NCBI GenBank assembly: GCA_035649355.1
Contig: DASRJS010000009.1
Span: forward strand, 4,906 to 68,905
Direction: 5' to 3'
DNA length: 64,000 nucleotides
DNA from: Candidatus Polarisedimenticolia bacterium
GTDB lineage: Bacteria > Chloroflexota > Limnocylindria > Limnocylindrales > CSP1-4
Shown: piece after piece, positions 17,961 through 25,911 of the stretch
How the letters are laid out: the number at the start of each line of letters is the position of its first letter
Numbering within the stretch: position 1 is the stretch's first letter
Notes under the pieces: model-generated
Told to the model about the DNA's origin: nothing
Seen by the model: only the letters and a program-made list of their open reading frames with translations
Database searches by the model: none
Made by a program: the position numbers and the translations under genes

Positions 17961-18551
17961 GTGCTTGCTGACGAGCGCTCGAAGGAAGCCATCGCGATCG
18001 ACACCGCGATCCCGTCACTGGCGTGGATCAGCGAGGAGCTCGAGGCGCGCGGCTGGACGCTGAAGCTCATCGTGTCGACCCACGGCCATTGGGACCATAT
18101 CGGCGACAACGCGGCGGTCGCGAAGCAGACCGGTGCGCAGATCGCGGTCCACGCTCTCGATGCTCATCGCCTGACGAACCCCCAGCCGATCTGGGCGCCG
18201 TTCGAGATCCCGCCGTCCGTCCCGGCGGTCGAGCTGGCCGAAGGCGGAGATATCCGCTTCGGGTCGATCCGGCTCACCGTCCTTCACACGCCCGGCCACA
18301 CCGAGGGCTCGGTCTGCCTGTACTCAGCCGATGACGGCCAGCTGTTCAGCGGCGACACGCTGTTCGCCGCTGGCTGGGGCCGCACTGACCTCGCCGGCGG
18401 CTCCGACGAGCAGATGGTCGAGTCGCTGACTCGCCTCGCATCGTTCGACGATGCGACGACCGTCCTGCCCGGCCACGGCCGCGAGACGACAATCGGCCGG
18501 GAGCGTGCCTGGCTCGAGCTCGTCGCGCGCCAGCGACGCCTGCTCGCCTAG
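17961..18551 (+). CDS. MBL-fold metallo-hydrolase (glyoxalase II-like)
   Basis: STHGHWDHIGDN and HTPGHTEGSV motifs are present. Coordinates use the first canonical start, GTG 17961. The conserved N-terminal strand (VGPIATNVHVLAD) is encoded upstream from about 17913. Confidence 0.85.
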   Translation: MLADERSKEAIAIDTAIPSLAWISEELEARGWTLKLIVSTHGHWDHIGDNAAVAKQTGAQIAVHALDAHRLTNPQPIWAPFEIPPSVPAVELAEGGDIRFGSIRLTVLHTPGHTEGSVCLYSADDGQLFSGDTLFAAGWGRTDLAGGSDEQMVESLTRLASFDDATTVLPGHGRETTIGRERAWLELVARQRRLLA

Positions 18552-19558
18552 GTTCGGCGAGGCTGTCCGTCGGCGAGGTCCTTCCGCCAGAGGACCCAGC
18601 GCTTGTGGATCGCGAACCCGGCGCGCTCGTAGACGCCGACCGCGCCGGTCGGATTCTCGCCGTGGACGCCGAGGACGGCGTCTTCCATGCCCATCGCCTG
18701 GAGCATCCGGAGCGTATCGGCGATCAGCGCGCTCGCAAGGCCAATCCGCCGCCACGGCCGGCGAACCGAGACATGCTCCAGCCACGCACGCCTGATGCCC
18801 ATGGCCTCGTTCTCCTCGGGCCAGATGAACGTCATGACGCTGCCCGCGACCTCGTCGCCGGCCCAGGCGACCCGCCACAGCGACGTGTCGAGGTGGGTCA
18901 TTCCGAACCACTTCTGGTAGTCCGATTCGAGCCGCTCGGCCGGTTCGTCATGATCCAGGAAGGCCTCCGTGTCGGCGTCCCAGATCACGCGGTGCTGATC
19001 CGGCGTGACCGCTCGGACCTCGAGGCCGGCGGGCAGCGGAGCGTCGGCGACCGGCGCGTCGAGCTGCCGGCGCATGAGGAAGCCGTAGGTGTGCGGCCGA
19101 TAGCCCGCCATTGTGGCAAACGCCTCTGCGCCTGGCACCGCAGGCTCGAAGAACGTCGTCAGCCGGTGCTCGAGGCCGTCCGTTCGAGCGAGCGTGCGAG
19201 CCACGCGGCCCGCGTGCGACTCGATCTCGCCGAGCAGGCGGCGCCCGATGCCACGGCGACGCCAGGTCGGATGGACGACAACGTGGACTTCGTGCGTCAC
19301 CGCCTCGCCGCGCTTCCGCCAGTCGGCTTCGGCCAGGCCAACGAGCGTGTCGCCCGACCAGGCCAGGATGACGTCGACCGCCGGGTCGAACCGCGGCGAC
19401 GGCTGCCATTCATCGGCGAGCGTCGCTTCGGTCGGTCGCCAGTCCACCTCGTCGTGCTCGTTGACAGTGAAGAGGAGCCCCGCGGCCGCGGCCATGTCCA
19501 CGGCCGGGTCGAACGGCCGGAGCGTGATGTCGGTCATCGTTGAGCCGGATGTTGACAT
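18548..19558 (-). CDS. two-domain GNAT N-acetyltransferase (MshD/Eis-like architecture)
   Basis: The start is MSTSGSTMTDITLRPF. GNAT cores are HPTWRRRGIGRRLL and VRRPWRRIGLASAL. Its ATG overlaps the rsgA stop (TGATG). The 689-aa track ORF is an artefactual extension. Confidence 0.8.
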   Translation of the reverse strand: MSTSGSTMTDITLRPFDPAVDMAAAAGLLFTVNEHDEVDWRPTEATLADEWQPSPRFDPAVDVILAWSGDTLVGLAEADWRKRGEAVTHEVHVVVHPTWRRRGIGRRLLGEIESHAGRVARTLARTDGLEHRLTTFFEPAVPGAEAFATMAGYRPHTYGFLMRRQLDAPVADAPLPAGLEVRAVTPDQHRVIWDADTEAFLDHDEPAERLESDYQKWFGMTHLDTSLWRVAWAGDEVAGSVMTFIWPEENEAMGIRRAWLEHVSVRRPWRRIGLASALIADTLRMLQAMGMEDAVLGVHGENPTGAVGVYERAGFAIHKRWVLWRKDLADGQPRRT

Positions 19559-20652
19559 CACGCCCAGCCTCGCTCGAGCGCCTTGTTCCGGGCGCGGTTG
19601 TTCTTGGCGATGGACTTCCAGCGGCGCTCCGCAACGATCCGGGTCGCCGCGCTCGTCCGCCGTTCGGCCGAGCGGGCCTCGCGCTCGAGACGTTCGAAGC
19701 TCGCAAACCGGGCGCCTTCGAGCTCGCCCGACGCGATGGCCGCGCGGATCGCGCAGCCGGGCTCGGCCCGATGGGCGCAGTCGCGGAACCGGCAGCCCTC
19801 GGCGAGCTTGCCGATATCCGAGAAGGCGATGTCCAGGCCGTCGCCGTCGGCCAGGCCGAGCTCGCGCAGGCCCGGTGTGTCGAGCACGACGCCGTCGGCG
19901 ATGAGCAGGAGCTGGCGCCGCGACGTCGTGTGCCGCCCGCGCGCGTCGTCCTCGCGGATGGACGCGGTGGCCATGAGCTCGCCACCGGCAAGCGCGTTGA
20001 CGAGCGTCGACTTGCCCACGCCGGACGAACCGACGAAGGCCGCCGTTCGACCCGGCCCGAGTCGCTCCCGCACGGCCTCGAGGCCAGCACCCGTGACCGC
20101 CGAAACGGGCATGACCGGAACACCCGGCGCGACGGAGCGAGCCGCGTCGATGAAGCCGCTGATGTCGACTGCGAGATCCGCCTTCGAGAGCAGGATCACG
20201 GGCTCGGCCCGCGACTCCCAGGCGACGACGACGTAGCGCTCGAGCCGGCGCACGTTGAACTCGCGGTTCATCGACGCGACGATGAAGAGCACGTCGACAT
20301 TGGCCGCAAGAAGCTGCGCGTTTGCGCCGCGATTCCCCGGCGGGCGCCGAACGATCGATGTTCGACGAGGCAGCCGGTCGATGATCGGCAGGCCCTCGGC
20401 GGCGCCCTCGATGACGACCCAGTCGCCGACGCCGGGGTAGGCGAGGGGATCGTCGACGTGCTCGTGGCGGAACCGACCGGCGAGGCCGGTTGAGCGCTCG
20501 CCGGCCGGCGTCATCACGACATAGGCACCGGACTCCTCGACGATGACCCGGCCGGGCATGCCGCCGGCCGCCAGGTGTGGAGCCAGCGACGCCGCCAGCT
20601 CCGCGTTCCAGCCCCACGCCGCGAGGCCGCCGAGGTCGAGCTCGGCGGTCAT
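19558..20652 (-). CDS. rsgA: ribosome small-subunit-dependent GTPase A
   Basis: Circularly permuted GTPase motifs are LLSKADL, GSSGVGKSTLVNAL and LDTPG. The C-terminal Zn cluster is CRFRDCAHRAEPGCA. The start MTAELDLGG at 20652 overlaps the upstream stop (ATGA). Confidence 0.9.
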   Translation of the reverse strand: MTAELDLGGLAAWGWNAELAASLAPHLAAGGMPGRVIVEESGAYVVMTPAGERSTGLAGRFRHEHVDDPLAYPGVGDWVVIEGAAEGLPIIDRLPRRTSIVRRPPGNRGANAQLLAANVDVLFIVASMNREFNVRRLERYVVVAWESRAEPVILLSKADLAVDISGFIDAARSVAPGVPVMPVSAVTGAGLEAVRERLGPGRTAAFVGSSGVGKSTLVNALAGGELMATASIREDDARGRHTTSRRQLLLIADGVVLDTPGLRELGLADGDGLDIAFSDIGKLAEGCRFRDCAHRAEPGCAIRAAIASGELEGARFASFERLEREARSAERRTSAATRIVAERRWKSIAKNNRARNKALERGWA

Positions 20653-21650
20653 CGCGACACCGCTGGTTCGATCGTCAGCGCGTATTCGAAGCTTTCGGAC
20701 GTGATCCGGAAGCCCATCGACTCGTAGAGCGTCTGGGCCTGTCTCGGGTTCTGGGTGTCGACGCCAAGCCCGGCGCACGTCGCACCGGCATCGCGAACGG
20801 TTCGCAGGCTCAGCGCCAGGAGCGCACGAGCCAGGCCACGGCGGCGGTACTCCGGCTGGGTGGAAATGCTCTCGGTCCAGCCGATGATGCTGCCGTCGGA
20901 CTCGACAGGCCCGAGGTAGTTGAGGATCTGGCCGGCAACCCGGTCGCCATCGAAGGCGACTCGCCACAGCTCCGGCTGGAACTCCTCGCCGGCCACCCAC
21001 TCGTCATACATCGCCTCGGTCGGCGCCTCCTCGCCATGCGTGTCGGCGAATGCGCGGTAGGCGGCGTCCCAAAGCCGTCGGTGCATGGCGTGGTCGTCCG
21101 GATCGATCGGTCGCACCTCAAACGGACTGGGCAGCGGAACGTCCGGGATGTCGTCGAAGTTCGGCCGGATGAGCCCGGCGTGACGGCGCTGGAGACGGAA
21201 GCCACGGGCGGCGAGGACCTCGCGCTGCCTGTGGTCACGGCCCTCCGCGTAGACGATGAGGTCCGTGGCCTCACCCGACGCGTGCTGGGCGACGAGATCG
21301 TGCGCGCGCTTGACGGCGTGCTCGACCATGCGCTCCTCGACGCCGATGCCCCGGGCCTCCGGGTGGATGTTCAGGACGCCCTCGACCTTGGCACTGCCGT
21401 TGACGAGGGGCCGCCACGACGCGCGGCCATACGCGACCGGACGCCCGTCGATCTCGACGAGTGCGCAGTCGAGGGGCAGTGCCTCCTGGTCCATGTGGCG
21501 GTAGTGGTTGGCGAGGCCTTCCACCGTTCCGAGATCGCGGTCACCGTTGTCGGCGCGAACGGCGGCCGCGATCTCGGCCATGGCCGGATGGTCCGGCTCG
21601 CCGCGATAGGCGCGCAGGACCAGCTTCGGGGCGACGACGACGCGGGCCAT
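20649..21650 (-). CDS. two-domain GNAT N-acetyltransferase (paralogue of 18548..19558)
   Basis: The start is MARVVVAPKLVLRAY. GNAT cores are HPEARGIGVEERMV and QPEYRRRGLARALL. It shares LW(R)VA..GD.VAG and NP..A..LYE..GF with the other double-GNAT. It has a 1-nt overlap with the permease stop. Confidence 0.8.
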   Translation of the reverse strand: MARVVVAPKLVLRAYRGEPDHPAMAEIAAAVRADNGDRDLGTVEGLANHYRHMDQEALPLDCALVEIDGRPVAYGRASWRPLVNGSAKVEGVLNIHPEARGIGVEERMVEHAVKRAHDLVAQHASGEATDLIVYAEGRDHRQREVLAARGFRLQRRHAGLIRPNFDDIPDVPLPSPFEVRPIDPDDHAMHRRLWDAAYRAFADTHGEEAPTEAMYDEWVAGEEFQPELWRVAFDGDRVAGQILNYLGPVESDGSIIGWTESISTQPEYRRRGLARALLALSLRTVRDAGATCAGLGVDTQNPRQAQTLYESMGFRITSESFEYALTIEPAVSR

Positions 21651-22453
21651 CAGCCGACCCTCTTGAGCCGGCCGGTCCGCTTCGCGAACCGCTCGGCCTT
21701 TTCGAACGCCCACAGCCCGAACGGGATGAGGACTGTGCCCATCACGAGGAGCGGCCAGATGTCGCCAACGAGGGCCGACACCGGGACGCCGTCGATCAGG
21801 CCGGCTCGGACGCCGTCGAGGACGTACGTCGCGGGCGACAGGTGCGAGATGACCTGCATCCAGCCGGGCAGGATCGAGATCGGGTAGTAGACGCCCGACA
21901 CGAGCAGCAGCACCGACTGGAGCACGAACGCCATCTGGGCGCCGCGCTCGATGTACAGCAGCGGCAGGATCGCCGCGAGCATCGCGATGCCGACGAAGCT
22001 GAACGAGCCGAGGGCCATGAACGTCACGACCGTGAGCGCGTTCGCGTTCGCCGCCGCGAGGCCGGGGAAGAACAGCACCATCGCGACGAGGATCGCGGCG
22101 GTGTGGATCAGCCCGTAGGCCATCGCGTAGAGCGTCGAACCGAGGAGCTGCGTCGCTCGCCTGACCGGCGCCATCATCGTGTACTCGAGCGTGCCTTCCC
22201 AGCGCTCCACCGCGATCGTCTCGGCGATCCAGCTGAAGACCACCGAGAGGTAGTTCCAGAAGACCGCGCCAACGATGAGCGTGAGGAGCAGCCGGTCGTC
22301 GCCCTGGCTTGCGCCGATCAGCGAGATCGACAGCGCGCCCGCGGCGGAATAGACCAGGAAGGCGATCTCCCAGGCCCAGTAGCGCCGCGTCAGGAAGAAG
22401 TTGCGCTCGATGAAGGCGTACGAGGCCTTCAATTCGTGCGCGAGGGTGGTCAT
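21650..22453 (-). CDS. ABC-2 type transporter permease
   Basis: MTTLAHELKASYAFIERNFFLTRRYWAWE... has six predicted TM segments, as in ABC-2/DrrB-like exporters. The start is the ATG at 22453. Confidence 0.85.
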   Translation of the reverse strand: MTTLAHELKASYAFIERNFFLTRRYWAWEIAFLVYSAAGALSISLIGASQGDDRLLLTLIVGAVFWNYLSVVFSWIAETIAVERWEGTLEYTMMAPVRRATQLLGSTLYAMAYGLIHTAAILVAMVLFFPGLAAANANALTVVTFMALGSFSFVGIAMLAAILPLLYIERGAQMAFVLQSVLLLVSGVYYPISILPGWMQVISHLSPATYVLDGVRAGLIDGVPVSALVGDIWPLLVMGTVLIPFGLWAFEKAERFAKRTGRLKRVG

Positions 22454-22490
22454 CGGAGTGTCCCCTTCGGGTTGGCGCCCGCCCGGGCGC

Positions 22491-22694
22491 TCAACGTGCC
22501 CGGGCGGGTTCGAAGCCGCGCTCCGCCGCCAGCCGCTCGCCGATCGCGATGATCGAGCGACCGAGCTGACGCCGAAGCGATGGTCGGTGATGCTGCCGCG
22601 CCCACTGGGCACGGCGGTCGTCGGCGGCTTGGCGATGCAGTTGAGCGATGCGCTCATTCGCAAGGCGGAGCCGCAGATGCGGGTTCGCGTTCAT
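22491..22694 (-). CDS. small Arg/Gln-rich hypothetical protein
   Basis: MNANPHLRLRLANERIAQLHRQAADDRRAQWARQ... (67 aa) sits between the ABC ATPase and the permease. I recognise no domain. Coding status is uncertain. Confidence 0.35.
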   Translation of the reverse strand: MNANPHLRLRLANERIAQLHRQAADDRRAQWARQHHRPSLRRQLGRSIIAIGERLAAERGFEPARAR

Positions 22695-22710
22695 CTGAGG
22701 TTCCTTTCTG

Positions 22711-23631
22711 TCAGTCATTGGTTGGTTCGTCGTCCGCGTCGTCGACGTCCTCGGCCGGCTCCTCGTCGTCATCGAGCGAGCGGCCGGTGTACGTCATGAA
22801 CGCGGCCTGAAGGGTCGGTGCCTGGCCGTCGCGCTCCGAAACGAGGCGCTTCAGCCCGGCGGGCGTGTCCTCGACGACGACTCGGCCGCCGTCGATGATC
22901 GAAATCCGGTCACACAGTCGCTCGGCCTCATCGAGGTCGTGCGTCGTCAGGACGATCGATGCGTCGTGGCTCTCCCGGACCTCCTCGAGGAAGGTCTGGA
23001 CGTCGAGCTTCGAGCGGGGATCGAGCCCCGTCGTCGGCTCATCCAGGAGGAGCAGCGCCGGGCTCGTCAGCAGGGCTCGCGCGATCGCGACCTTCTGCTG
23101 CATCCCTCGGCTCATCTGCTCGACCGGGCGGCCGACACGCTTCCTCGAGATGCCCAGGCGACCGAGGATGTCGATCACGTTCGACTTCGCCAGCTTCGCG
23201 TCCAGGCCGTAGAGCCGGGCCGCGAAGATCAGGTTCTCCATCGGGCTGAGCTTCTTGAAGAACGCCGCATCGACACTGACGCGGTTGATGAGTCGCTTGA
23301 CGGCCATCTCCTCGCGCCCGACGTCATGCCCGAAGACCTCGACTCGACCGGTGTCGAGCGTGAGGAGGCCGGACACGAGCCGGATGAGCGTCGACTTGCC
23401 GGAGCCGTTCGCGCCCAGGATGCCGACGACGCCGCCCCGCTCGAGCGTGAGCGAAACGTTGTCGATGGCGAGGACGCGGCGACCCTTGCCCACGTCGAAG
23501 TGCTTGGTGACACCCTCGACGAGGAGCGCCGGCGCATCGAGGTCGATCGCGATGGACCGAAACGGAACCGCAGCGGTCCCGAGCCGATCCGGCGTGAACG
23601 TCGTATTCGGTTGGCGGGTCAAGGTCGTCAT
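22711..23631 (-). CDS. ABC transporter ATP-binding protein (ABC-2/DrrA-like) with acidic C-terminal tail
   Basis: Walker A is GANGSGKST, the signature is MSRGMQQKV and Walker B is LLLLDEPTTGLD. AAAGGAGG lies upstream of the ATG at 23631. The C-terminus is DDDEEPAEDVDDADDEPTND. Confidence 0.9.
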   Translation of the reverse strand: MTTLTRQPNTTFTPDRLGTAAVPFRSIAIDLDAPALLVEGVTKHFDVGKGRRVLAIDNVSLTLERGGVVGILGANGSGKSTLIRLVSGLLTLDTGRVEVFGHDVGREEMAVKRLINRVSVDAAFFKKLSPMENLIFAARLYGLDAKLAKSNVIDILGRLGISRKRVGRPVEQMSRGMQQKVAIARALLTSPALLLLDEPTTGLDPRSKLDVQTFLEEVRESHDASIVLTTHDLDEAERLCDRISIIDGGRVVVEDTPAGLKRLVSERDGQAPTLQAAFMTYTGRSLDDDEEPAEDVDDADDEPTND

Positions 23632-23805
23632 GTCGGTCGACCTCCTTTCTTCGCTGCGGCGGCCCCGGTGGGGTCGCGGGTTGTTGGGTCGTTCGGTGGC
23701 TGGAATCACGAGAGCCGCGGGTCCCGGCTCCTTCGCTTTCGCGTCGGGTGGGCCTCGCGGCTCCTGGATCGTCCTCGGCTGCCGAGCTGGCAGTCCGAGG
23801 CAATC

Positions 23806-23836
23806 AAAAAACCGTGGGCCCGATCCTTGCCCACGG
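23806..23836 (-). terminator. rho-independent terminator
   Basis: The minus strand reads CCGTGGGC-aaggatcgg-GCCCACGG followed by TTTTTT, giving an 8-bp GC-rich stem, a 9-nt loop and a 6-U tail. Confidence 0.7.
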
Positions 23837-24010
23837 CTCCTGGTTCCTTCGGAAGGGCGGCCCTGCCGCCCGGTCCTCACCTAAGAGGTAGGCAAAAATC
23901 TCCCGCCGTCGGCGGCGCCGAAAGGCGCGACCGTGCGATTGGAGAGGAAGTTCGAACTCATCTGGTTGAGCCGCCTCCGTTAGGTGGGATGACTGGACGC
24001 GAACGTCCGG
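23806..24010 (-). ncRNA. unclassified structured RNA, about 205 nt (leader/attenuator of the ABC operon or stand-alone sRNA)
   Basis: It is bounded by a sigma70-like promoter and an intrinsic terminator. It has several GC-rich hairpins and a long-range helix, CACCTAA(cg)GAGG / CCTCTTAGGTG. The 5' end is estimated from the -10 box. Confidence 0.5.
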
Positions 24011-24016
24011 CGGCGG

Positions 24017-24046
24017 ATGGTACGGGGCCGCGGAGCGCCGCGTCAA
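24017..24046 (-). promoter_or_regulatory. candidate sigma70/SigA-type promoter
   Basis: On the minus strand, TTGACG (24046-24041), an 18-nt spacer and TACCAT (24022-24017). It lies 25 nt downstream of the GNAT stop. Confidence 0.45.
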
Positions 24047-24070
24047 GCCAGATGTCCACAACCTTTGGGA

Positions 24071-24667
24071 CTAGAGCTCGAGGCGGACGATCGGGCGGGC
24101 GTGCTTGCTCTGCGGTGCCTGCCGGATGGCGACCACCTCGAAGCCGGCCTTCTCGAACATCGAGAGCGTGCCGTGATAGGCGTTCGCGGCGGGGATCTTG
24201 TGTCCGGCGGTGTCTGCTGGGTAGGCCTCGAGCATCGTCGCACCGCTCGCCCGGGCGAAGTCGACGGCGGCGGCGAGGAGCGCGGCCGCCACCCCGGCAC
24301 CGCGATGCTTCCGCGAGACGACGAAGCAGACGATCGACCAGACCGGATGGTCGTCGACCTTCGCGAGGACCTTGGCGGTCGTGAGTCGGTCGTAGCGCTC
24401 GCGCTCAGCGAGGCTGACCCAGCCGACCGCCCGTTCACCCAGGTAGGCGACCAGGCCTGGAGGTGGACCGTCGCGGGTCAGCGCTTCGAGGCGGCCGCGG
24501 TTGACTGCCGCCCTGGACGTCCAATCGAGCCCGCGGACGCGATAGAACTGGCACCAGCACCACTTCGGGTCGCCGCCCTCTTCGAAGAGCGCCGCGAGGT
24601 CGGCGAAGCGATCCGGCGTCAGCGGGTGGACGACAACCGGCGCGGTCTCGGCGGGCGCCTTCGTCAT
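24071..24667 (-). CDS. GNAT family N-acetyltransferase (CWCQ-motif subfamily)
   Basis: The start is MTKAPAETAPVVVHPLTPDRF. It contains GGDPKWCWCQFYR and the GNAT core SRKHRGAGVAAALL. The true start is the ATG at 24667, inside the 438-aa track ORF. It is a paralogue of 40974..41588. Confidence 0.85.
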   Translation of the reverse strand: MTKAPAETAPVVVHPLTPDRFADLAALFEEGGDPKWCWCQFYRVRGLDWTSRAAVNRGRLEALTRDGPPPGLVAYLGERAVGWVSLAERERYDRLTTAKVLAKVDDHPVWSIVCFVVSRKHRGAGVAAALLAAAVDFARASGATMLEAYPADTAGHKIPAANAYHGTLSMFEKAGFEVVAIRQAPQSKHARPIVRLEL

Positions 24668-24768
24668 CGCTCGATGATGCCGGATGGTCGTGTCGTCTAC
24701 TGGCATGAATACAAAGCTGCCCGGTCCGGAGACCGGGCAGCAGTACGGGTCGCGTAACGGCAGAGCCG

Positions 24769-25191
24769 TCAGGCCATCGAGGGCTCTGACTTCCAGCCGG
24801 CCAGGAATGCCCAGGCGGCGACGACGAGGTGGAGGATGTTGTCGGCGGGGCTTTCGAGGTTGGCCAGGCCGAACGTGTTCGGGTCCGTCGACGAGCCCGC
24901 CGGCACGACGAAGCCGTAGATGCCGAAGAAGAGCGCGATGACGCCGACGAGCAGGACGATCCAGCGGTAGTACGGCGCGAGCGCGCTGTTCAGGCCGGGG
25001 ACGTAGAGCGCCGCGAGCGCGACGACTCCAAGTGCGATGTGGGCGACGTTCTCGCCGTTGTCCAGCCAGAACGCCGGATAGGCGGATTCGCTGAAGATGC
25101 CGAGGTAGCCGACGACTCCCAGCAGCACGAGGACGATGCCCCCGGCCATCAGGAAGCCCTTCGGCGAGAAGATGCCTTGACCCATGGTCAT
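24769..25191 (-). CDS. DUF4383-like membrane protein
   Basis: Four hydrophobic segments are present, with NGENVAHIALG and DNILHLVVA resembling the repeated N..H motif of DUF4383. GGGAG precedes the ATG. Confidence 0.7.
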   Translation of the reverse strand: MTMGQGIFSPKGFLMAGGIVLVLLGVVGYLGIFSESAYPAFWLDNGENVAHIALGVVALAALYVPGLNSALAPYYRWIVLLVGVIALFFGIYGFVVPAGSSTDPNTFGLANLESPADNILHLVVAAWAFLAGWKSEPSMA

Positions 25192-25443
25192 CCGGATTCA
25201 CTCCCTCAGATTCGGATGCGTGGAGGCCCGGACGGCGGCAGTCGATGAGCGCGCGCCGAAACGGGCCCGACGGCGCCGCGTCCTGCGGCACCGGTGCCGT
25301 TAGGCGATGCGTTCTCCTCCCTGCGTCCCCACGCCGGCCCATTGGGCGAGCCGCGTCCAATGGCGCGATTGTGGCGCCGCCTGTCAAGCGCGAGATGGGC
25401 GCGCTAGAGTCCTACCGTCGTTACGTGGGGGTCGGAGGAGCAG

Positions 25444-25911
25444 ATGAATCTCGTCCCGTGGTTGCTCTTTGCGCACATCCTGGGCGCCATCCTGGCGTTC
25501 GGACCGACGTTCGCGTTCCCGATCATCGGCGCTGCCGCCGGACGTGAGCCGCAGCATGCGAACTTCACGCTCCGGGCGCTCGAGGTCGTCACCACCCGCC
25601 TCGTGATTCCTCTCGCGATCTTGCAGGGCGTGACGGGCGTCGGGTTGATCCTTGCCACCGGCATCGACCTGTTCGCGGCGCGCTGGCTGCTCGTCGCGAT
25701 CGTTCTCTATGCCGCGGCGCTCTACATCGGGATCGGGATCAACCTGCCGAACACGAAGCGGCTGATCGAGCTGTCATCGACGCCACCGGGTCCGGGTGGC
25801 CCGCCGCCCGAGCTCGTTTCGCGCCTCGCCCGGGGCCGTCAATTCGGCATGGTCCTGTCCGCTCTGATCGTCACGATCGTCTTGCTGATGGTCGTGAAGC
25901 CGACGTTCTAG
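25444..25911 (+). CDS. DUF2269-like membrane protein
   Basis: MNLVPWLLFAHILGAILAFGPTFAFPII... has four TM segments. GGAGGAG precedes the ATG. Confidence 0.7.
   Translation: MNLVPWLLFAHILGAILAFGPTFAFPIIGAAAGREPQHANFTLRALEVVTTRLVIPLAILQGVTGVGLILATGIDLFAARWLLVAIVLYAAALYIGIGINLPNTKRLIELSSTPPGPGGPPPELVSRLARGRQFGMVLSALIVTIVLLMVVKPTF

Follow-up and report, generated by a model that had tools for sequence, protein, structure and literature searches.

In the whiB7 leader of mycobacteria and other actinobacteria, efficient translation of a uORF (upstream open reading frame) favors a terminator, and antibiotics or amino-acid shortage favor an antiterminator and read-through (PMC10274678). The rli80-hflXr (lmo0762) leader of Listeria monocytogenes is a small-ORF attenuator that controls a ribosome-associated GTPase, and ribosome stalling leads to read-through (PMC6310831; PMC9226507). 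Related antibiotic-responsive leaders are lmo0919, vmlR, bmrB-bmrCD, and ermK. We analyzed 64,000 nucleotides of contig DASRJS010000009.1 (the whole stretch is called the window below) from the widespread, uncultured soil lineage Ca. Limnocylindria (Chloroflexota), and focused on the leader of an operon that encodes a DrrA-type ABC ATPase, an ABC-2 permease, GNAT acetyltransferases, and the GTPase RsgA. We conclude, with a probability of about 0.8, that this leader is a ribosome-mediated (leader-peptide) transcription attenuator that controls the operon by read-through. We found no description of uORF-dependent attenuation in Chloroflexota (Ca. Limnocylindria) in our literature searches or in Rfam, and the leader would provide a comparatively validated case in this lineage.

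The proposed switch depends on where the ribosome is when the terminator is made. A promoter is predicted to start an RNA of about 205 nt that carries a 26-codon uORF and then a terminator, about 170 nt before the start of the ABC ATPase. If the last codons of the uORF (region 2) are free when the 5' part of the terminator (region 3) leaves RNA polymerase, the 2:3 antiterminator would form first and transcription would read through into the operon. A ribosome on the last ~8 codons or on the stop codon would cover region 2, region 3 would pair with region 4 to make the terminator, and the transcript would end at the T-tract. We infer from this arrangement that efficient translation of the uORF turns the operon off and that slow, stalled, or absent translation turns it on. 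Rare AGA-UCU codons and the stop context may prolong the dwell time of the ribosome on region 2, and a helix that closes the Shine-Dalgarno sequence (SD) of the uORF (P1, below) may limit re-initiation on finished RNAs. The signal would be general translation stress, caused by ribosome-targeting antibiotics or by amino-acid or tRNA shortage, which agrees with the content of the operon (an exporter, acetyltransferases, and RsgA, a 30S-associated GTPase). Induction of the ABC-2 exporter/GNAT/RsgA operon under translation stress is the most likely outcome.

The leader is a new family within a known mechanistic class and is homologous to neither the whiB7 nor the rli80-hflXr leaders. Like the whiB7 leader, it has a distal promoter, a short uORF, and a rho-independent terminator before the regulated ORF. 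The output of the whiB7 regulon includes efflux, a GNAT acetyltransferase, and ribosome-associated functions, as here. Unlike the whiB7 leader, to which it has no sequence or Rfam relationship, it belongs to Chloroflexota, has its antiterminator strand inside the last uORF codons, has a much shorter uORF (26-31 codons) that is not enriched in alanine (10% of residues, behind serine and arginine), and controls an effector operon, DrrA-type ABC ATPase first, directly and not through a transcription factor. As in the rli80-hflXr group, a small ORF and a mutually exclusive terminator and antiterminator control a ribosome-associated GTPase or an ABC protein. The sequences of that group are unrelated to ours, however, and here the GTPase is RsgA and not HflX, the ABC protein belongs to a DrrA/ABC-2 exporter and is not an ABC-F protein, the RLR motif occurs in only 3 of 74 leaders, and no inducing drug is known. 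The trp, his, leu, and thr attenuators likewise have a leader peptide, a terminator, and an antiterminator that are set by ribosome position, and a hairpin inside our uORF (H2) could, like the trp 1:2 pause hairpin, keep transcription and translation in step. In contrast to those attenuators, this leader has no tandem regulatory codons for one amino acid, its operon is not biosynthetic, and there is no co-evolution signal for a region 1:2 pairing; it behaves as a three-region (2/3/4) switch.

The leader was conserved directly upstream of the same operon. We compared 80 loci with an orthologous ABC ATPase (67-80% identity) in metagenome-assembled genomes (MAGs) labelled Chloroflexota Limnocylindria/Limnocylindrales, a few of which are probably mis-binned. 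A search by nhmmer with the intergenic region of the window matched upstream of the ATPase gene in 64 of the 80 loci. A profile from the resulting alignment matched 79, which was the outcome of the comparison of intergenic regions that a first-pass annotation of the window had proposed; the exception was a locus cut at a contig end. The window contained exactly one match to this profile (23999-23799). An exact-pattern scan for the leader core in metagenome contigs gave 102 with enough downstream sequence, and the ABC ATPase was 100-500 nt downstream of the leader in 97 of these and at 94 nt in one more. The leader was always in the sense orientation and directly upstream of the operon (79/80 genomes and 98/102 informative contigs). 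This conservation is the strongest evidence that the leader is more than a chance arrangement.

The promoter, the uORF, and the terminator were each conserved. All leader features were read directly on the minus strand of the window (Table 1). The leader alignment (MAFFT) contained 64 sequences, and the promoter count covers the 69 leaders with enough upstream sequence. The pattern TTGAC[AG]-N18(17)-TAnnnT was at the homologous place in all 69 leaders. No other promoter-like site was found in the surrounding 3 kb of the window (22500-25500; mean of 0.1 in shuffled sequences), and the predicted transcription start site is at about 24010. An SD and ATG followed by a uORF of 26-31 codons were present in 75 of 76 leaders, and the uORF stop was 38-44 nt upstream of an invariant CCGTGGG in 70 of 73. 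This CCGTGGG was identical in 64/64 sequences. The terminator hairpin of the window folds at -19.9 kcal/mol, and its 11 pairs were paired in 92.6% of cells of the alignment. Our terminator scan missed it only because the 9-nt loop exceeds the 8-nt limit of the tool; in one relative (L003) the same scan located the promoter as well as the terminator, each at its homologous place. The first-pass annotation had placed the promoter (TTGACG, 18 nt, TACCAT), the 26-codon ORF with its GGAGG, the terminator (23836-23806), and two hairpins (GCGCC/GGCGC and GGGCGGC-agg-GCCGCCC) exactly where we found them.

Region 2 and region 3 form a covarying antiterminator. RNAalifold on the 64-sequence alignment recovered only the terminator, the hairpin H3, and a 3-bp stem. 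Poor alignment of the 5' half hid the long-range helices from it, and for this reason we turned to folding of single sequences, duplex tests, and an anchored register. Conservation within the leader was highest at GCGGGAGAUCUGUGCCC, inside the uORF, and at the terminator with its loop. A conserved loop is unusual for a terminator, and this one covaries with region 2 (uORF codons -8 to -3), the consensus pairing being GAUCUG(U)GCCCAU with GUGGGC-CAGAUC. In the window, GAUUUUUGCCU and GGGCAAGGAUC make 11 contiguous pairs (-19.3 kcal/mol), and a duplex of -15 to -24 kcal/mol was predicted in every leader. Over the alignment, the 12 pairs of region 2:3 were paired in 92.7% of cells, as good a score as that of the terminator, and this fell to 24-53% when the partner was slid by 1-3 columns. 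Compensatory haplotypes included GAUCCG/CGGAUC, GGUG/CACC (about a dozen leaders), CAGUG/CACUG, and the variant of the window itself. With the register anchored on the invariant GCCC:GGGC, four positions had several pair types (for example CG 48, GC 13, UG 7 and UA 50, GC 11, AU 3).

Each leader was matched to its own antiterminator partner. Region 2 paired better with the region 3 of its own leader than with those of other leaders in 92% of cases (-21.9 versus -19.3 kcal/mol, nominal p=4e-10 among leaders many of which are related), and control region pairs in the same test showed no effect. U218, the invariant U of CCGUGGG, has A or G as its partner in the antiterminator in 46/64 leaders and is mismatched in the terminator in 33/64. 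The antiterminator and the terminator share region 3 and are therefore mutually exclusive. The first-pass annotation had the terminator and other helices right and missed this antiterminator.

Region 2 is constrained as RNA and is also coding sequence. It reads G-R-S-V-P, and the codons are GGG in 65/69, AGA in 64/69, and UCU in 42 of the 44 serine codons there, with third codon positions nearly invariant. In six surrounding genes of the window, AGA is 1 of 165 arginine codons and UCU is 0 of 82 serine codons. The rare codons GGG-AGA-UCU (23893-23904) are frozen because they are the antiterminator strand. Here RNA structure clearly overrides codon preference, and the codons may also be a programmed slow spot. 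In all, six codons are fixed as otherwise avoided codons and double as the antiterminator strand. At the level of the peptide, the C-terminus G-R-x-x-P-x-S-(S/R)-stop was kept and the N-terminal half was variable; A-P-x(1-2)-G was present in 53/74 leaders and G-[RK]-x-x-P-x(2-3)-stop in 72/74, and the rest varied. The pattern of conservation suggests that the conserved C-terminus is largely due to RNA constraint, and likewise A-P...G-A, which corresponds to the GCGCC/GGCGC hairpin.

That hairpin, H2, lies inside the uORF and was the most consistently predicted helix of the 5' half in the 64 sequences. Synonymous compensatory variants (GCACC...GGUGC) and one clade with a 3-nt loop insertion are consistent with the uORF frame being read, and loop indels inside the uORF were multiples of three. 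H2 is possibly a pause or timing hairpin.

In truncated leaders, the predicted choice between the two structures depended on the position of the ribosome. We folded 72 leaders truncated before the 3' arm of the terminator, using a 30-nt mask for the ribosome. The median probability of the 2:3 pairing was 0.9-1.0 without a ribosome, and also with the footprint centered at any point between the start codon and a position about 10 codons short of the uORF end. It was 0 with the P-site in the last ~8 codons or with the stop codon in the A site. In the window, the minimum free energy (MFE) structure of the truncated RNA was the antiterminator and that of the full-length RNA was the terminator (-94.7 versus -87.1 kcal/mol with 2:3 forced). 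The first-pass annotation had suggested control by read-through, and its leader-peptide branch is supported by the presence of the uORF (75/76), the fixed stop distance, and the covarying antiterminator.

Several points weigh against this interpretation. Many of the leaders are related sequences, and the p-values for co-evolution overstate their independence. In full-length leaders at equilibrium, the terminator wins at every ribosome mask (P at least 0.74), so the switch must be kinetic, like that of other attenuators. The uORF has a long spacing between its SD (GGAGG) and its ATG, 12 nt in the window; most relatives have 8-12 nt. Codon-position entropy revealed no third-position periodicity in the uORF outside region 2, because high GC bias and RNA constraints swamp the signal, and the direct evidence of translation in the sequence comes down to the SD and ATG, the reading frame, and where the stop lies. 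Use of the promoter, a 3' end at 23806, and translation of the uORF are steps that we infer. The form of the untranslated state is uncertain because regions 1 and 2 do not co-evolve, and two hairpins after the terminator (H4 and T2) have no role in the attenuator model. The folding z-score of the whole RNA was only -2.2.

The untranslated RNA is predicted to be closed by the long-range helix P1. The MFE fold has the 5' strand of P1, which includes the SD, paired to the region of the stop codon and to the 3' part of region 2. Its strands paired better when matched than when swapped between leaders (-20.2 versus -17.9 kcal/mol, nominal p=1e-5). The first-pass annotation had described a long-range helix and a TCTCC/GGAGA pairing (region 1:2) as the structure of the RNA. 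Both are in the MFE fold; the helix is only part of the untranslated, off state, and TCTCC/GGAGA showed no co-evolution in the test with matched and swapped partners. We accordingly rejected region 1:2 as an anti-antiterminator and kept it only as a possible element of the off state. Near the 5' end, a hairpin (P0) was predicted at the same position in most relatives with differing sequences, and the P0 loop of one clade, GCAGAUC, is complementary to region 2.

We weighed explanations in which the ribosome does not make the choice. In a riboswitch, a ligand-bound aptamer would pick the terminator or the antiterminator and the uORF would be incidental. The leader is structured and conserved, with a terminator and an alternative pairing, and equilibrium folding alone does not demand a ribosome. 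However, 75/76 leaders retain the SD and ATG, the frame, and the fixed stop although the sequence between them varies widely, which a riboswitch would not need, and loop indels inside the uORF are in multiples of three. Every column conserved in at least 90% of the 64 sequences was in the ATG, the helices, region 2, the stop region, or the terminator, and among these columns there was no orphan single-stranded core or junction. Rfam 15 at the gathering score gave a tRNA elsewhere as the sole match in the whole 64-kb window, and at E<=10 it gave only chance-level matches in 23400-24300 (best E=0.87, all far below the gathering score), which bears out the earlier statement that the RNA belongs to no known family. 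A riboswitch, the other branch of the first-pass proposal, found no support and is very improbable. That proposal also offered an independent small RNA (sRNA), with the ~205-nt terminated transcript acting in trans and the operon expressed from elsewhere. A strong, conserved promoter and a terminator of its own would suit an sRNA, and RNAs derived from attenuators can act in trans in other bacteria, an example being rnTrpL (PMC6614838). The strict linkage of the leader in cis to one operon in genomes and contigs speaks against an sRNA; a promoter scan of the window found no other promoter-like site between the terminator and the ABC start; and a covarying antiterminator makes sense only for control in cis. 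We consider an independent sRNA extremely improbable; the terminated leader could have a secondary role in trans beside its role in cis.

The remaining explanations give the main role to a peptide or to a protein. The uORF might encode an arrest peptide specific for a drug or metabolite, or an exported or modified precursor resembling ribosomally synthesized and post-translationally modified peptides (RiPPs) that the ABC exporter and the GNATs handle, the terminator then serving only to set stoichiometry. The arrangement of a small ORF, a terminator, and an ABC exporter is common in peptide gene clusters, and the uORFs do have conserved residues (the two motifs above), an RLR macrolide motif in 3/74, and [RK]x[RK] in 27/74. 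The last two motifs had no positional conservation and neither is in the peptide of the window, and the conserved residues coincide with RNA helices (A-P/G-A with GCGCC/GGCGC and G-R-S-V-P with region 2), where synonymous sites are held with otherwise avoided codons, a constraint on RNA and not on peptide. The rest of the peptide is highly variable. Among the 74 uORFs, the arrest motif RAP[PG] was in none and runs of three or more identical residues were sporadic, and no RiPP maturation enzyme was among the operon genes by their Pfam and NCBIfam matches. A functional peptide is thus improbable as the explanation; its arrest-peptide version is compatible with ribosome-mediated attenuation and is not a true rival. 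Protein-mediated antitermination or attenuation, with an RNA-binding protein (the 67-aa operon protein or a ribosomal protein) on H3, H4, or T2, would give a role to the conserved hairpins H3 and T2, which have no assigned role, and the operon does encode a small, conserved protein rich in arginine. Nothing points directly to a protein in this role, compensatory changes in H3 suggest that its structure matters more than its sequence, and the overlap of the uORF and the antiterminator already gives a complete mechanism. We regard this as the least probable of the alternatives.

A more specific form of ribosome-mediated attenuation is doubtful. The leader could be a drug- or metabolite-specific sensor in which the C-terminal G-R-x-x-P-x-S-S/R-stop and AGA-UCU program a dwell that is changed by a specific compound or tRNA shortage, and the operon could be an inducible module, so far unrecognized, for ribosome protection or antibiotic resistance in soil Chloroflexota that are abundant and uncultured, with RsgA analogous to HflXr.

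The operon downstream of the leader was also conserved. Most of the 80 related loci had the same set of genes after the ATPase, arranged in two orders. Between the ATPase stop (22711) and the permease ATG (22456), what looks like a gap of 255 nt is filled by a 67-aa ORF that had no match in Pfam, was at the same place in at least 34 of the 80 loci, and has the C-terminal motif RRxxGRxxIxIGERLAAEPxLxPARSR. A sequence search of PDB with the GNATs gave only uncharacterized two-domain GNATs and a faint similarity to AAC(2'), a likeness that does not decide the substrate. The content of the operon (exporter, GNATs, RsgA) appears reminiscent of translation-stress and intrinsic-resistance regulons. 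We rejected an in-frame 389-aa ORF (GTG at 23880) as an N-terminal extension of the ABC ATPase, because homology starts at residues 1-3 of the 306-aa protein in many loci, the SD and start are conserved, and the upstream hairpins vary in length. If the model is right, an ABC-2 exporter, GNATs, a new small protein, and the 30S-biogenesis GTPase RsgA are tied to a translation-sensing switch, a hint at ribosome-directed stress, and the leader could be used as a covariance model to annotate regulation of the operon in MAGs and soil metatranscriptomes.

Table 1. Features of the leader and the operon, in window coordinates.
Feature	Position	Strand	Sequence or detail	Basis
Sigma-70-type promoter	24017..24046	-	-35 TTGACG 24046-24041; 18-nt spacer; -10 TACCAT 24022-24017	
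P0, 5'-proximal hairpin	23995..24008	-	GGACG-uucg-CGUCC	MFE folds
P1, 5' strand	23971..23988	-	includes SD GGAGG 23978-23974	MFE folds
uORF	23881..23961	-	26 codons + TAG, MSSNFLSNRTVAPFGAADGGRFLPTS; ATG 23961, stop 23883-23881	
H2, hairpin inside uORF	23906..23938	-	core GCGCC-uuuc-GGCGC 23928-23915	folding
Region 2, antiterminator 5' strand	23886..23904	-	uORF codons G20-T25; window core GAUUUUUGCCU 23900-23890; consensus GAGAUCUG(U)GCCCAU	
P1, 3' strand	23878..23888	-	CCUCUUAGGUG; contains uORF stop TAG (23883-23881)	MFE fold
H3, hairpin between uORF stop and terminator	23855..23871	-	GGGCGGC-agg-GCCGCCC	RNAalifold
Intrinsic terminator	23806..23840	-	5' arm CCGTGGGC 23836-23829; 9-nt loop 23828-23820; 3' arm GCCCACGG 23819-23812; T6 23811-23806	
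Region 3, antiterminator 3' strand (terminator 5' arm and loop)	23832-23822	-	window GGGCAAGGAUC; consensus GUGGGCCAGAUC	
H4, hairpin	23767..23805	-	GAUUGCCUCGGaCUGCC-agcuc-GGCAGCCGAGGaCGAUC; starts right after the T-tract (about 1-2 nt); -22.8 kcal/mol in the window	
T2, extended hairpin	23712..23763	-	GAGCCGCG...CGCGGCUC; -32.2 kcal/mol in the window	
SD and start of ABC ATPase	23629..23646	-	AGGAGG 23646-23641; ATG 23631-23629	read from sequence
Operon	18548..23631	-	gene starts approximate	Pfam + NCBIfam
DrrA-type ABC ATPase	23631-22711	-		Pfam/NCBIfam
67-aa small ORF	22694-22491	-	arginine-rich; own SD	homologues
ABC-2 permease	22456-21650	-		Pfam/NCBIfam
Two-domain GNAT	about 21653-20649	-		Pfam/NCBIfam
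RsgA GTPase	about 20622-19558	-		TIGR00157 above cut-off
Second two-domain GNAT	about 19537-18548	-		Pfam/NCBIfam

Hairpins outside the switch were conserved to different degrees. H3 is enclosed by the antiterminator, and 4 of its 6 pairs were changed on both sides (e.g., CG 55 and GC 9 at one pair). At the position of H4, relatives had a hairpin of different sequence, with a median free energy of about -9 kcal/mol. T2 was found by its arm motifs in 53/76 leaders (median -29.7 kcal/mol); its arms resemble those of the terminator, and its tail (GUUCCAUGUC-like, 3-4 U in 8 nt) is not U-rich, which suggests that T2 arose by duplication of the terminator and then lost its U-tract. T2 could serve as a back-up terminator, as a processing site, or as a stabilizer. 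We also considered whether a 4:5 pairing might link T2 to the switch and set this aside; the T2 hairpin (about -30 kcal/mol) would dominate, and the likeness of the arms may reflect duplication. The first-pass annotation had argued from the lack of TA dinucleotides after the T-tract that no internal promoter is available. There are indeed none in 174 nt; only about 1.5 are expected at 70% GC, and the argument is weak and was given too much weight.

One variant locus carried the leader without the ABC genes. One of the 102 metagenome contigs (L149, Ga0066652_100370296; oriented positions 413-1296) had a complete leader (promoter, uORF, terminator, and T2), followed by a homologue of the small ORF and then an RsgA-like gene. 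This layout suggests that RsgA is a core member of the regulated set.

The gene upstream of the leader was less constant. In the window, a GNAT gene (24628-24071) ends 25 nt before the leader promoter, with a terminator-like hairpin upstream of it (24716-24741, minus strand), and such a gene adjoins the leader in only 27/80 relatives. No terminator was found in the window between the GNAT stop (24071) and the promoter, so transcripts of this gene would also enter the attenuator.

A few leaders departed from the common layout. In two metagenome contigs (L117 and L162, positions about 40-330), the terminator was followed directly by a fragment of an RsgA G domain (…GSSGVGKSTLLNRLAG…), which was then interrupted; both contigs appear to carry copies of the locus that were rearranged or have decayed. 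In another leader (L093), a variant uORF runs through H3 and has its stop inside region 3.

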